Source: Escherichia coli
GTDB lineage: Bacteria; Pseudomonadota; Gammaproteobacteria; Enterobacterales; Enterobacteriaceae
Assembly: GCF_048403405.1 (NCBI RefSeq)
Contig: NZ_CP183129.1
Direction: 5' to 3' (one strand)
DNA length: 64,000 nt
The position numbers are program-made. Every line of letters begins with the position of its first letter. Positions within the stretch are counted from its first letter, which is position 1. This document shows, piece by piece, positions 30,001 to 42,000 of the stretch.

Positions 30001-33000
30001 TGCCTGTCTGGTGAGTAGGCGAACCAGACCGCCGGTGGCTCTGATGAGCCCGCATTCCGGTCATCCCGGACATACGTCCAGATGCGTCCTGTTTTTGCCT
30101 TTTTTCTGCCCGGTGTCAGCACTTTTACCGGTGTGTCGTCAGTGTGAACCTTGCGGGTGTTCATCACGTAACGGTACAGGGCATCATTCAGCGGAGTCAT
30201 TAACTGGCAGCACGCGTCAACCCAGTTGGAGATTAATGCACGGCTCAGTTCGGCACCCTGTCGGGCAAAGATTTCACTCTGACGATACAGTGGCAGGTGT
30301 TCGCAGTATTTTCCCGTTAACACGCGGGCAAGTAATCCGGAGTCCGCGATGCCGCGCGCTATCGGGCGGGACGGCGCTGGCGCTTCAACTATACAGTCAC
30401 ATTTTGTACAGGCTTTTTTTACCCGAACAGTGCGGATCACTTTCAGGGCGCTACTCACCAGTTCCAGCTGCTCAGCACTGACTTCACCCAGATAATCCAG
30501 CTCACTGCCACACTCCGGGCAACAACTTTCTTCAGGCTCCAGGCGGTGTATTTCACGGGGAAGATGTGCTGGTAACGGACGACGATGACGTGACTGTCGC
30601 AACTGGCGGGGAACCTGCGGGTCATCCTCACGCCCACTGTAACGATCGCTTTCCTGTTCGCGTTGTTTCAGTTGGGCCTCAGCCTGTTCAACCTCACGCT
30701 GCAGTTTTTCAGAACGGGTACCGAACAGCATCCGGCGCAGTTTTTCTATCTGGGCCCTCAGATATTCTATTTCCCGCTCCTCCTCTTCGATCTTTTCTTC
30801 GGCACGTGCCAGTGCAGAGCGCAGGAAGGCCTCCGTCTCTTCAACCAGACTCAGTTGCAGATCTCTCTGACGGAGGGCTTCAGCCTGCTCAGAGAGCAGC
30901 CTTTCCAGCTCAGTGATACGAATGAGGTATTTCCGACTCATGACCGTTTTTATAATCCGGCCATGACATTTTTACAACATTGTCAGTGCGTTAAGACGGG
31001 ATGTTTTTGGCTGACGCCAGTCTAGCTTATCGAGGAGCATTGCCAGCTGCGAGCGGGTAATGGATACCTTACCGTCACGCACCGCAGGCCAGATAAACAG
31101 GCCTTCCTCCAGGCGTTTGGTGAACAGGCACAGACCATCAGCATCAGCCCAGAGGATTTTAATCATGTCACTCCGTCGGCCACGGAAGATGAACAGGTGA
31201 CCGGAGAAGGGGTTCTCATCCAGCACATGTTGTACCTGTTCACCCAGACCGTTGAAGGATTTACGCATATCAGTAACGCCGGCAACCAGCGAGATTCGAG
31301 TGTCTGATGGGAGCGAGATCATCGCCCCCTCCCGGTCAGTTCACGGATCAACACCGTGAGCAGCTCTGGTGAAGGATTTTCCAGCGTCATGTTACCGTGG
31401 CGGAACTCAACTTTACAGGAACTGGCACTGACTGTGCTTTGTGAAGGAGTGGATAAAAGCGGAGTAAGAGCCGCCATAGGCTCTTTCTGCTCATCAGGCG
31501 TTATCTCAACAGGTAATAATTCAACGCCAGCGTCAGAAGAGGTTGTTACCGGAAGACGCCGCGATATACGCCCTTCGTTCTGCCAGAGCCTGAGCCATTT
31601 GAACAGGAGGTTATCATTGATATCGTGTTCCCTGGCAATACGGGCAACAGAGGCTCCTAGTTGTGAAGCCAGTTTAACCATTTGAAGTTTAAACTCATTT
31701 GAAAATGTTCTGCGGGGTTCTGCGGATAATATTTTCTGTTCCATAACAGGTGTCCACTAGTTGATGAAAAGGTGGGCACCTACGTTACCAATACTGGCTT
31801 AATGGCTACATACGGCGGTCAGTTTACGCTTACCATGTATCTGGCGAGTGAAGCTTTATGTCGTGTTCTGGCGTGTCCTGTGTTAGTTAGAACACGCCAT
31901 CGATGGTCAGCAGGTTCATATTGCACCAGAGCGGATACAGCGTGGTGTTATGTCAGGGCTGCGCTGTTTACGTGAACACGTGGCGTACGGCCCCGCTTCC
32001 TGGCCGCTGCTGGGCATGGATCACGGCGCGACAAAGGGGCGACTACCTGGCAGCATGTGTCCAGCCGGTTCACAATCTGGTGAAGGTTCCTTACGCTCAT
32101 GGGCCATACTGATAATTCACCAGGCCATCATTTCCAGAGGAAGACGCCGTTTGCGTAGCGTGACAGTGTCGGACTCTTCAGGGCTGTGGGTAATCAGTTC
32201 CGGGGCAAGATAGTCGCAGAGGGTTACGCAGAGAATAGTAACTGGACACTGGATCGATCAACCGATCCTTAACTGAGCGGCATGACAGCTTTCTGATGGT
32301 TTTTTTTTGATAATCTTCACATTGTGCTTCTTTTCTGTTGGATAATCTTTGTACTTGATGGTGTACTAGGTATCCCATTATGCAGTTAAGTGAAGGTGAT
32401 TAAAAATGCAATGTGAATTTAAAGGGGTCATATCAGCATTACCCACTCCTTATGACCAATCCCAGCAAATCGATATGGAGAGTCTTCGAAAACTGATCCG
32501 TTTTAATATCGAACAAAATATTAAGGGATTGTATGTTGGAGGCTCTACTGGAGAAGCATTTCTTCAGAATGTTGCAGAGCGAGAAAAAATTCTTGAAACA
32601 GTAGCCGATGAATCAGATGGAAGACTGACACTTATAGCGCATGTGGGCGGCATCAGTACGGCAGAAAGCGAGGTACTTGCAAAAGCTGCAAAAAAATACG
32701 GATATCATGCTATATCTGCTGTTACTCCATTTTATTATCCTTTTTCATTTGAAGAGCATTGTATCCATTACAGGAAGATTATTGATTCTGCAGATGGACT
32801 TCCGATGGTAGTTTATAATATACCGGCTCTTAGCGGAGTGCGTTTTTCTTTAGATCAGATAAATGAGCTTGTCACAATACCCAGGGTTTGTGCATTAAAA
32901 CAGACATCCGGTGATTTATTCCAGATGGAACAAATCAAAAGGAATCATCCAGAGCTTGTGTTATATAATGGTTACGATGAAATATTTGCATCAGGGTTAA

Positions 33001-39000: not shown

Positions 39001-42000
39001 CATATCGCCTCAACGTTTGTGAATCAGATTTGTGATTTCAAACGTTCTTCTGACAGTAAAGAACAAGAGATTTTCGCTATTCCCGATTTTGTCGGGTTAA
39101 TTTATCCTGTAATATCAATGAAAGATGATGTGACACATCCAGGCTCCAGGAAGCAATTACTGGGGGACAATAGTACCTCAGAAAATATAATACAATATAG
39201 TGCGGATCTTAATGTCACATCATGTTTTCCTCCTGTGTTTTTACTCCATTGTTGTGATGATGATCTTGTGTCAATTGAAAACAGTCTGCTCATGTACCGT
39301 GGCCTAATAGAGAAAGGTGTTTCTGCTGAAATGCATCTCTATGAGAAAGGAGGGCATGGTTTTAGTATTCAGTGGGCCACAGATCTTCCTGTTGGAGGAT
39401 GGATAAAACTGTTTATGGACTGGATGTATTCTCATGGATTTAAATAATATTTATGGTGACTACCTGGTGAAGCGTCGAGTAACTATGATGCTTCAATTCG
39501 TTTATAAAGGTGATTATACATTAGCTGTTCAGCTTTATCACAATCATGCTCTTTTATGGCCGTAAGTATTTCAATATGCTGCTGATGGGTTTTTTTGTTA
39601 TTTTCATATGTCATTTTATTCTTTTCCAGAGGTTTGGCCATTATCAGCCATTCAGAAAATGCTGAGTGTATTGTTTTTAATACTTTATTGTCAGGTATAT
39701 CAGCAAGTATACTATGAAATTCAATATCATATTGAGCATACACTTCGGGGGTTCTCAGTGAGTTATGATGGATACTGAGCACCTTCTCAAGCCTGTGAAT
39801 ATCCTCAGGCGTTGCATTTTTTGCTGCATATCTTACAAGGTTGGTTTCAAAAAAGATGCGTAGTCTTTCAAAATCCTTGATGCCATCAGCTGTAGATAAA
39901 AAATCTTTAACAATGCCTGATAACCCATTAATGATGGTTTCTGGTGATGGACGGCAGACACTGGCTTTTTCTCCCTTGTTATACCGGATTAGCCCTTTAT
40001 GTCTGAGAGATGATAAAGCCTCTCTGACAGATGGTCTTCCAACGCCAAAGAATGCCATAAGTTCACGTTCAGAAGGCAGGTATTCACCTTCCCTTATCTC
40101 CTCCTGGCGGATCATTCTTTCAAGCTCTTCGGCAACGATTTCTGAAAGTTTTTTTGTAACAATGGGCTTTCTGGTCGTTGTTAGCCCGGGTAACACGGTT
40201 TTTTTGTTGTCGGACATATATTGATTTATATGGATTAGAGCAAATGAGTTTTTAATTTAACACTTTCTTTTAATAATGAAAATATTTAATTAAATCTATT
40301 ATGTAAAGGGGGAATGATGTATCATCATGATTTTAATGAAAAAATAGGTTTCTGGTATGTGATAGCCCTCGCAGGACAGTCTAATGGTATGGCCTACGGT
40401 GAAGGTATTCCCCTGCCAGATACACTCGACAAACCCGAGTCCCGTGTAAAACAACTGGCTCGTCGAAAAACAATCACACCAGGAGGAAAAGAGTGTAAAT
40501 TCAATGAGATTATTCCGGCAGATCACTGCCTGCATGATGTTCAGGATATGAGTGGATATCACCATCCGGCTGCTGATTTGCATAAAGGGGAATATGGTTG
40601 TGTCGGACAGGGATTGCATATAGCTAAAAAGTTACTGCCATACATACCTGAGCAAGCAGGGATATTACTGGTTCCTTGTTGCAGAGGAGGTGCCGCCTTT
40701 ACTGTTGGAGCTGAAGGTATGTATGTACCTGATACAGGGGCAACAGCTGATGCAATGCGGTGGGGCACCGGAACAGCACTCTATGAGGACTTAGTAGCCC
40801 GGGTTAAGGTAGCTCTGGAATATAACAGAAAGAATAAACTGCTATCTGTCTGCTGGATGCAGGGGGAGTTTGATTCTTATGTCACCAGATTATGAAAAGC
40901 ATCCTGACTTGTTTTATCAGATGGTAACTTCTTTCAGGTCTGAGTTATCTGAATACTCATCTCAGTGTGTTGGTAATTCGTCAGAAAGAGTTCCATGGTT
41001 GTGTGGTGATACAACCTGGTACTGGAAGGAATCTTATCAAAAAGAATATGATTTTATATATGGACATTACAGACAACGGACTGATGATGAAATACATTTT
41101 CTCAGCTTTCAGGATAGTAACCGACATGAATTAACTAATGAGCCAGAAGAAGATGCCGATGATTTATCTGTCGGGTATCTGGGGTCATCATGGAGGACAG
41201 AATTAAGCTGGACAACGTCACAGAGAAGTACACATTTTAATTCAATGGCCAGAAGGGGAGTTATTGCTGAATGTTATGCGCAAAAAATAAGAAATTATTT
41301 GTAAACAAGTTCAGGATATATCTACAGCTCTGACATGATTCTCTGAGAGACATGACGGAGTGGCGGGGGCAGCAAGCCAGAACACTGCCTGACATGCTTT
41401 CATCAGACGCAGGTCCTCTCTCATATCCTCTGATTTACTCCAGTAAGGTGATGATCATATCTTTATTTGATAGTACGGTAATGCCAGATAAATACAGACA
41501 CAATGGTAAATAATATAGTTGCAAATAATGCTGCCATAATCAGCGCGATTGCGACACCTGTTTTCGATACCAGCGGCACCAGCAAAGCGCACAGTCCATA
41601 GCCAAGTGTGTGACTGGTAGCGAGCCAGCCCGCGCCTGCGCCATCAGCCAGCTTATCATTCAGTAGAAGTTGATAAGCGGGTGTTGCCAGAGCTGCTCCA
41701 AATGACAGCACTGCACAGCCCGGGTAAAACAACCATAGCTGTTCGGAGAGCATGATAGCCAGACCACCACTCATCAACACTCCGGCACTCAGGAGCAGGG
41801 CCACCGGAGTCAGGCGCTGCGGACGGAGTACCCCGAACTGCGCGATAAGCGCAGCTACTGCGGACAGACCCAACAGCCAGGCCACCTGTTGGCTAATGGC
41901 GGTGGTATCCGTGGCGAACTGGCGAGTAAGGGCAGGCGAAAGTCCAAGCTGCATCATGCTCACCGCCGCAGCCAGTAATATTGCGCAAAGCAGATAAGGC

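Follow-up and report, generated by a model that had tools for sequence, protein, structure and literature searches.

The nan-9 sialic-acid gene cluster of Escherichia coli and its diverged relatives in Proteus, on IncFII plasmids and in Citrobacter farmeri-type contigs

Introduction

The sialoregulon of Escherichia coli K-12 comprises nanR, nanATEK-yhcH(nanQ), nanCMS and nanXY, and its NanR operator consists of three GGTATA repeats placed 2-3 nt apart. A further set of nan genes, which was named nan-9, has been described by Tiwari et al. 2023 (BMC Biol 21:76, PMC10088187). Here we analyzed a stretch of 64,000 nucleotides of E. coli DNA (RefSeq assembly GCF_048403405.1, contig NZ_CP183129.1; hereafter the window, to which all coordinates refer unless another sequence is named) and found that the nine-gene cluster at positions 32406-41304 is nan-9, already known and published since 2022-2023. 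We propose that nan-9 is very probably a horizontally acquired accessory module for the uptake and catabolism of sialic acids, and we describe three diverged lineages of the same module together with a conserved promoter arrangement.

The published work gives the frame for this comparison (PMC10088187). In a genome-wide association study, nan-9 was the strongest match to the human host, and its prevalence reached 83-85% in sequence type (ST) 131, 68-82% in ST73 and 19-51% in ST69. Deletion of nan-9 in an ST131 strain resulted in a lag of about 3 h on N-acetylneuraminic acid (Neu5Ac), and in slower growth with a lower yield on N-glycolylneuraminic acid (Neu5Gc). Deletion of nanRATEK abolished growth on Neu5Ac completely, which the authors attributed to the lack of nanE in nan-9. 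The similarity of the cluster to the sialoregulon was given as 45-64%, and its two axeA1-like genes were proposed to encode additional sialyl esterases. Proteus, Citrobacter and pheV are not mentioned in that paper, which uses the word plasmid for other loci only, and a later functional study of nan-9 was not found in the literature. Earlier, Vimr (2013) had listed a second, short nanS in strain CFT073.

Acquired sialate O-acetylesterases are also known from the prophages of enterohaemorrhagic and Shiga toxin-producing E. coli. Their NanS-p proteins, like the NanS of nan-9, are extra SASA-family paralogs gained by pathogenic E. coli. However, NanS-p are long multi-domain phage proteins encoded beside stx and unaccompanied by transport or catabolic genes, whereas the NanS of nan-9 is of the short form and part of an uptake and catabolic module carried by a non-phage island.

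Results

Gene content of the cluster

The nine genes are arranged in the order nanA, nanK, nanT, est1, nanC, nanM and est2 on the + strand, nanR on the - strand, and nanS again on the + strand. The seven genes from nanA to est2 are separated by spacers of 3-49 nt, and nanR is convergent with est2 and divergent from nanS. The window thus holds what defines nan-9, namely nine contiguous genes with axeA1-like genes at the est1 and est2 positions on a chromosome of extraintestinal pathogenic E. coli (ExPEC). It shares with the cluster of PMC10088187 the same nine genes, their order, their divergence, the lineages (ST73, ST131, ST69), the absence of nanE and the flanking insertion sequences (IS); it differs from it by four single-base indels in nanM, est2 and nanS, and otherwise in nothing essential. 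An earlier note on this DNA, made by reading the sequence, had placed paralogs of NanA, NanK, NanT, NanC, NanM, NanR and NanS together with two alpha/beta-hydrolase esterases in this segment, in an arrangement unlike that of the core nan loci. Both statements were borne out, the order being distinct from nanRATEK-nanQ and nanCMS of K-12.

Comparison by BLASTP with the proteins encoded by the K-12 genes of NC_000913.3 gave identities of 44-66% for the seven Nan proteins. This absence of near-identity agrees with the earlier view of a diverged module rather than a recent duplication. The cluster has a G+C content of 0.38-0.41 (around 39%) against 0.50-0.58 in its flanks, and the low G+C content and the IS flanks point to horizontal acquisition, as had been supposed.

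The first three genes would encode the lyase, the kinase and the transporter. The nanA paralog (32406-33323, + strand, 305 amino acids (aa), 66% identical to K-12 NanA) passed both N-acetylneuraminate lyase equivalog models, with 449 bits against a cut-off of 281 for NF003164 and 434 against 382 for TIGR00683. All seven residues checked were conserved (Ser47, Thr48, Tyr137, Lys165, Asp191, Glu192 and Ser208); we take these to be the catalytic and Neu5Ac-binding residues, with Lys165 forming the Schiff base. The product of the nanK paralog (33357-34232, + strand, 291 aa, 53% identity) is predicted to be a ROK-family N-acetylmannosamine kinase: it exceeded the subfamily model NF003461 (420 against 283), fell below the equivalog NF047821 (385, cut-off 450) and retained the ROK zinc motif GHx9CxCGxxGC. 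The nanT paralog (34281-35753, + strand, 490 aa, 66% identity) encodes a sialate:H+ symporter of the major facilitator superfamily, which scored 829 bits with NF003024 (cut-off 604) and 473 with TIGR00891, under its cut-off of 553.

The envelope proteins, the repressor and the SASA-family esterase were placed in the same way. The nanC paralog (36633-37343, + strand, 236 aa) encodes a KdgM-family outer-membrane channel with a hydrophobic N-terminus; its 61% identity to K-12 NanC spans the full length, and RefSeq annotates it as a KdgM-family porin. The nanM paralog (37356-38463, + strand, 369 aa when intact, 44% identity) encodes a predicted periplasmic sialate mutarotase that has a signal peptide and scored 463 bits with NF010730 (cut-off 416). 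The nanR paralog (39483-40217, - strand, 244 aa, 52% identity) encodes a GntR/FadR-type repressor with 273 bits for NF003011 (cut-off 260) and a match to the solved NanR structure 6on4 (E = 5e-73). The nanS paralog (40317-41304, + strand, 328 aa when intact, 56% identity) was recognized by the Pfam model SASA and by its match to 3pt5 (NanS/YjhS, E = 9e-125), and keeps the GQSN serine and the SxHF histidine. Among the nine proteins, signal peptides were found in NanC and NanM only.

Searches by tblastn with the K-12 queries detected neither NanE nor NanQ in the whole 64 kb, the best NanE match having an E-value of 0.16. The Neu5Ac catabolic pathway (NanA, NanK, NanE) is incomplete in the cluster, NanE being absent. 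The earlier note had reported this gap and deduced a dependence on the core enzyme, in agreement with the failure of the nanRATEK deletion strain on Neu5Ac (PMC10088187). Compared with the K-12 sialoregulon, nan-9 shares the lyase, kinase, transporter, porin, mutarotase, repressor and SASA esterase families, but it forms a single locus without nanE, nanQ or nanXY and has two extra BD-FAE esterases.

Relatives in other lineages

The module was found in three further diverged lineages, namely the Proteus chromosome, E. coli IncFII plasmids and Citrobacter farmeri-type contigs, which are an addition to the published description. On Proteus faecis and Proteus vulgaris chromosomes, eight genes follow the order nanA-nanT-est1-nanC-nanM-est2-nanR(-)-nanS, without nanK. 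One Proteus copy (L006, JBBFAD010000016.1) occupies positions 7487-15649 of its contig, and another locus, L013, is from Proteus faecis. The Proteus copy is flanked by metalloprotease genes on one side and by a two-partner secretion locus on the other, with a G+C content of 33% against 34% in the surrounding 20.8-kb locus. The Citrobacter farmeri type is represented by 10-12 kb contigs of Citrobacter farmeri and E. coli, which also carry toxin-antitoxin and colicin-lysis genes; the order here is est2-nanR(-)-nanS-nanA-nanK-nanT-est1-nanC-nanM, a circular permutation. The same permuted order was observed on conjugative IncFII plasmids, where finO and repA flank the module. Of the 5426 complete E. 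coli genomes, 21 have this plasmid-borne version, and the isolates listed include those from mice, rodents, pigs and humans. An example is the copy of mouse E. coli M1 (L021, NZ_CP010181.1, 3711-12731), whose proteins are 46-90% identical to those of nan-9. The gene nanE is absent from all four lineages of the module.

The proteins are conserved to very different degrees across the lineages (compared were the window, L006, L009 and L021). The cross-lineage identity was highest for NanT (88-92%), NanC (78-87%) and NanR (71-85%), intermediate for NanA (69-82%), NanS (62-78%) and NanM (55-77%), and lowest for NanK (54-68%), Est2 (53-67%) and Est1 (46-64%). This uneven conservation may reflect a strong constraint on the transport parts, a diversification of the enzymes or mosaic recombination. 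Except for NanA, every nan-9 protein resembles its counterparts in two or all three of the other lineages more closely than it does the K-12 protein; in the case of NanA, the pairwise identities among the K-12, IncFII and nan-9 copies are all around 71%. The NanT-9 clade is sparse, and the database gave no match with an identity below 88% and above that of the canonical enterobacterial NanT (around 66%). A scan of the genome collection with NanT-9 recovered just Proteus faecis and a mis-binned metagenome-assembled genome carrying E. coli DNA, and no donor.

The tight grouping of NanT, NanC and NanR (71-92% among lineages), with canonical NanT at around 66% and no intermediates, could reflect a different ligand range. 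The module would then serve another nonulosonic acid, or the recycling of the cell's own O-acetylated capsular or lipopolysaccharide sialic acid. We consider this very unlikely, because NanA has kept every one of its catalytic and Neu5Ac-binding residues, NanA exceeds the cut-offs of the Neu5Ac-lyase equivalogs, and deletion of nan-9 alters growth on both Neu5Ac and Neu5Gc. Moreover CFT073 and ATCC 25922, which carry the cluster, are not known to be K1 strains.

Promoter region and regulation

Upstream of nanA, two predicted regulatory sites were found at a fixed distance from each other. A CRP-like site, TTTGATAATCTTCACA (32306-32321, + strand), is the sole match to TGA-N6-TCACA on the + strand of the window. 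It lies about 40 nt upstream of a NanR-type operator, and this spacing is the same in all four lineages, whose proteins share only 46-90% identity, the sites of the other three being TTTGAAAAAGATCACA, CGTGAAAAAGATCACA and CGTGAAAATGATCACA. The predicted operator, GGTGTA-CTA-GGTATC (32360-32374, + strand), consists of two direct repeats, each with one mismatch from GGTATA, which recur with a 9-nt period as do the repeats of the K-12 NanR operator. An exact search for GGTATA-N(1-4)-GGTATA gave no match in the window, and the operator was found after one mismatch per repeat had been allowed and the lineages had been compared. The window and each related cluster hold a single copy of the 14-mer GGTGTACTAGGTAT, in every case immediately upstream of nanA. 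Comparison of the four promoters gave 15 invariant columns, while the remaining promoter sequence could not be aligned; the Proteus operator has a third GGTATA repeat. Thus nan-9 and the K-12 sialoregulon share the operator logic of direct GGTATA-like repeats and a CRP-like site upstream of nanA, although nan-9 has two repeats with one mismatch each and K-12 has three. The conserved pair of sites, which we suppose to be functional at the nanA promoter, is an addition of this analysis to the published description.

The earlier note had proposed two intergenic regions as targets of the NanR paralog. The first, 32214-32405, holds the predicted operator; the second, 40218-40313, has none. The segment VGRPSVREAL, in a conserved N-terminal stretch of the NanR paralog, is identical to that of K-12 NanR. 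We take it to be the recognition helix, and this identity makes it likely that the nan-9 and core NanR proteins cross-regulate each other's targets.

Two structured elements were predicted further downstream. A stem-loop at 38472-38502 (+ strand), with a perfect 10-bp stem and an 11-nt loop followed by AGTTATTTTA, is located 10 nt ahead of the start codon of est2, in the spacer that follows nanM (folding energy of -20 kcal/mol, z = -4.7). A canonical terminator occupies the same position in Proteus, and est2 of the permuted lineages is preceded by a separate upstream region that contains GGTAT. The stem-loop may be an attenuator or a partial terminator, or may stabilize the distal part of the operon. 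A terminator-like hairpin was also placed by consensus scan between the convergent est2 and nanR genes (39468-39495, no strand assigned). A scan for consensus promoters gave 33 hits against 29.3 in shuffled sequences, and with no excess it was not used for placing promoters. The Rfam scan gave no match inside the cluster.

The two esterases

The two remaining genes encode alpha/beta-hydrolases. By Pfam, est1 (35757-36587, + strand) encodes a putative BD-FAE/Abhydrolase_3 acetylesterase of 276 aa without signal peptide, and est2 (38513-39447, + strand) a second putative acetylesterase of this type, of 311 aa when intact (BD-FAE, E = 8e-20), which is 37% identical to Est1. Both gave sub-threshold matches to PaeX and AxeA1 in NCBIfam, with scores of 168-210 against equivalog cut-offs of 550-700. 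The motifs PGGGY, GFSAGGH and GGHGF and an Asp-Asp pair were invariant in all six Est sequences compared, a pattern that fits an oxyanion hole together with a Ser-Asp-His triad. The best solved relatives of Est1 are 6a6o and 7dwc. PaeX-type pectin acetylesterases and BD-FAE acetyl-xylan/feruloyl esterases (6a6o, 7dwc, 3hxk) have in common with Est1 and Est2 the fold family and the GxSxG nucleophile motif, but their genomic context is pectin or xylan, and that of Est1 and Est2 is sialic acid. In Dickeya, paeX adjoins the kdgM porin gene, which resembles the position of est1 beside nanC.

A search of 5.8 billion proteins returned no relatives of Est1 between 99% and 47% identity. Its nearest outside groups, three in number and 46-47% identical, all lie within nan clusters. 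Remoter Est homologues stand beside GH43, TonB-dependent receptor and uronate genes, and the esterases accordingly appear to have been recruited out of a plant-polysaccharide acetylesterase family and then kept in the module.

The same loci would suit an account in which nan-9 provides plain redundancy. An extra transporter, lyase and kinase would then give faster induction and more flux of Neu5Ac and Neu5Gc, and Est1 and Est2 would be unrelated to sialic acid or act on other acetylated sugars, which would enter through the KdgM-type channel. This account gains from the published phenotype, recorded on Neu5Ac and Neu5Gc in their non-acetylated forms (a lag of around 3 h, slower growth), and from the nearest named models of the two esterases, which are those of pectin and xylan acetylesterases. 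It is nevertheless unlikely, given that est1 and est2 have been kept in the nan module in four lineages despite identities of 46-67% and a permuted gene order, that their catalytic motifs are invariant and that a SASA-type sialate esterase is always present as well. We infer that the substrates of the two esterases would be O-acetylated sialic acids, within a sialic-acid module to which both genes belong.

Frameshifts in the window copy

Comparison with re-sequenced CFT073 and with ATCC 25922, in both of which all nine genes are intact, revealed four single-base indels in around 60 kb, all of them in nan-9 coding sequence. Two are in nanM, where one G is lost at 38362 and one at 38379, and the open reading frame (ORF) stops at 38402 instead of 38463; the last 34 or so residues of the window NanM are lost or garbled. 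In est2 one G is lost at 38761, which leaves two ORFs (38513-38788 and 38782-39447), and in nanS an extra T at 40874 produces ORFs 40314-40895 and 40870-41304, so that the catalytic serine and histidine of NanS fall in separate ORFs. If the window sequence is correct, only nanA, nanK, nanT, est1, nanC and nanR would be functional. The cluster had been called complete in the earlier note: nine genes are indeed present, but the pathway has no NanE, and nanM, est2 and nanS are frameshifted here.

Four G or C runs of at least 7 were counted in the 64 kb (CFT073 sequence), three of them in nanM and est2 (38363-38368, 38380-38386 and 38762-38768), and the lengths of the nanM and est2 G runs differ among public assemblies. 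These runs are either slippage hot-spots or sites of recurrent homopolymer miscalls.

It is a serious possibility, though not the one that we favor, that this copy is decaying, with four real frameshifts, the mutarotase, Est2 and NanS functions lost, and the module partly or wholly non-functional. The restriction of all four indels to nan-9 coding sequence speaks for decay, as do the unaltered G8 run at 4102 and A/T runs of 8-9, and the location of the indel at 40874 outside any long homopolymer. Furthermore, the exact truncated NanM was found on 3 public contigs and the exact 221-aa Est2 fragment on 87, so that other assemblies have the same products. Against decay, three of the four indels shorten by one base the region's only long G runs, the typical pattern of homopolymer miscalls. 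In addition, Nord58, which has the same NanM truncation, also lacks nanC and est2 calls and seems to be an error-prone assembly, and for each of NanM, Est2 and NanS the intact protein is found on at least 1000 contigs in public data. Also against decay, a 100% match to positions 38330-38800 was found in no complete RefSeq genome.

Setting of the cluster

CFT073 and ATCC 25922 (ST73-type) carry the region at 99.9% identity, and ST131 genomes, e.g. JJ1887, match at 99% or more. When carriage was counted as the presence of at least 80% of the region, 688 of 5426 complete E. coli genomes were carriers. On the left, nested IS66-family remnants (28306-31744) adjoin the cluster, with agn43 and hha upstream; on the right lie shiF-iucABCD-iutA, sat and iha. 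A degenerate transposase remnant (31891-32289, - strand), annotated as a frameshifted, partial transposase in CFT073 and ATCC 25922, marks the left edge of the module. The left junction, comprising this remnant and the nanA promoter (31900-32700), is kept in 688 of the 689 genomes with the cluster: the transposase remnant travels with the module. At the nanS-shiF junction (41000-41800), the direct contact of nan-9 with the aerobactin genes is kept in just 105 genomes, and in most carriers something separates nanS and shiF. A search for flanking repeats that could mark the module ends gave only short, chance-level matches, and no tRNA gene was found in the window.

Two IS66-family segments (29843-31428 and 56900-58455) are around 91% identical and in inverted orientation. 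They bracket about 25 kb with nan-9, shiF-iucABCD-iutA and sat, in a layout resembling that of a composite transposon. Well above their gathering scores, Rfam detected an IS102 RNA (20166-20371, - strand) adjoining agn43, and isrC, an Hfq-binding small RNA (59115-59237, - strand), near the iha end of the island.

The window is collinear with ATCC 25922 and distinct from it in sequence. That it could be CFT073 itself was ruled out by about 50 single-nucleotide polymorphisms (SNPs) and an IS110-family insertion. This element (2076-3505, with a 367-aa transposase ORF at 2349-3452, - strand) is also present in ATCC 25922-like genomes, and CFT073 lacks it at this position. The SNPs are concentrated in iutA and sat. 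Multi-base indels of 7, 14, around 16 and 8 nt relative to CFT073 occur at 25444, 25519 and 50816-50997, clustered in the intergenic DNA upstream of hha and in that separating iutA from sat. The indels at 50816-50997 also appear in the comparison with ATCC 25922, unlike those at 25444 and 25519.

Discussion

Gene identities, catalytic residues, the lack of nanE, the promoter motifs and the synteny in four lineages are established by the sequence. Published experiment has established that nan-9 has a part in the use of Neu5Ac and Neu5Gc for growth and does not suffice without nanRATEK (PMC10088187). From these two bodies of evidence a route for sialic acids can be proposed. Free sialic acids would pass the outer membrane through the NanC-like channel, their anomers would be equilibrated in the periplasm by the NanM-like mutarotase, and the NanT-like proton symporter would import them. 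In the cytoplasm, up to three esterases (NanS, Est1 and Est2) may strip O-acetyl groups. The NanA paralog would then cleave Neu5Ac (or Neu5Gc) into pyruvate and N-acetylmannosamine (or N-glycolylmannosamine), which the NanK paralog would phosphorylate. The next step would use the core NanE, followed by the core NagA and NagB, and because the core NanE is required the module would only supplement the core pathway. The genes nanA-nanK-nanT-est1-nanC-nanM, perhaps with est2, would be transcribed from a CRP-dependent promoter, with the NanR paralog, and probably the core NanR as well, acting as repressor at the two GGTRTA repeats in 32360-32374. The cytoplasmic location of the esterases is predicted from the missing signal peptides of Est1, Est2 and NanS, and it would imply that NanT-9 imports O-acetylated sialic acids.

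Several observations weigh against this interpretation. The deletion phenotype of nan-9 is mild, and Biolog arrays gave no difference (PMC10088187). A nanA mutant of CFT073 was outcompeted at least 25-fold in bacteraemia although CFT073 carries nan-9, which indicates that redundancy in vivo is limited; the paper does not state which copy was deleted, presumably the core gene. The cytoplasmic placement of the esterases departs from Vimr's model, in which K-12 NanS is periplasmic. The sialate O-acetylesterase function of Est1 and Est2 is hypothetical, here as in the literature, as is the specialization for O-acetylated host sialic acids that the earlier note had suggested, and their homologues at 38-41% identity belong to xylan or uronate loci or to unrelated contexts, none being in a nan locus. 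Three genes of the module (nanM, est2 and nanS) are interrupted in the window. Finally, the nanR-nanS spacer (40218-40316) contains no GGTATA-like repeat in E. coli, and no operator was found for nanS.

A more far-reaching conjecture is that Est1 and Est2 represent an unrecognized BD-FAE class of sialate O-acetylesterases, acting for instance on 4-O-, 7-O- or 8-O-acetyl groups and complementing the 9-O activity of NanS, and that the four lineages are host-adapted. We advance this combined proposal tentatively and regard it as rather doubtful. If it were true, NanT, NanC and NanR would have stayed near constant (71-92%) while the esterases and the mutarotase diverged (46-77%), and this divergence would match the sialic-acid acetylation patterns of different hosts. 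The versions would be those of the ExPEC chromosome, of E. coli IncFII plasmids (mostly from rodents and pigs), of Proteus and of the Citrobacter farmeri type.

The CRP site with its operator, the three additional lineages and the G tracts of nanM and est2 offer handles on the specificity of the esterases and on cross-regulation by NanR. As the gene set most strongly tied to human-source E. coli in the published association study, nan-9 marks major ExPEC clones, and what it adds to the core pathway bears on the colonization of the human gut that precedes urinary and bloodstream infection.

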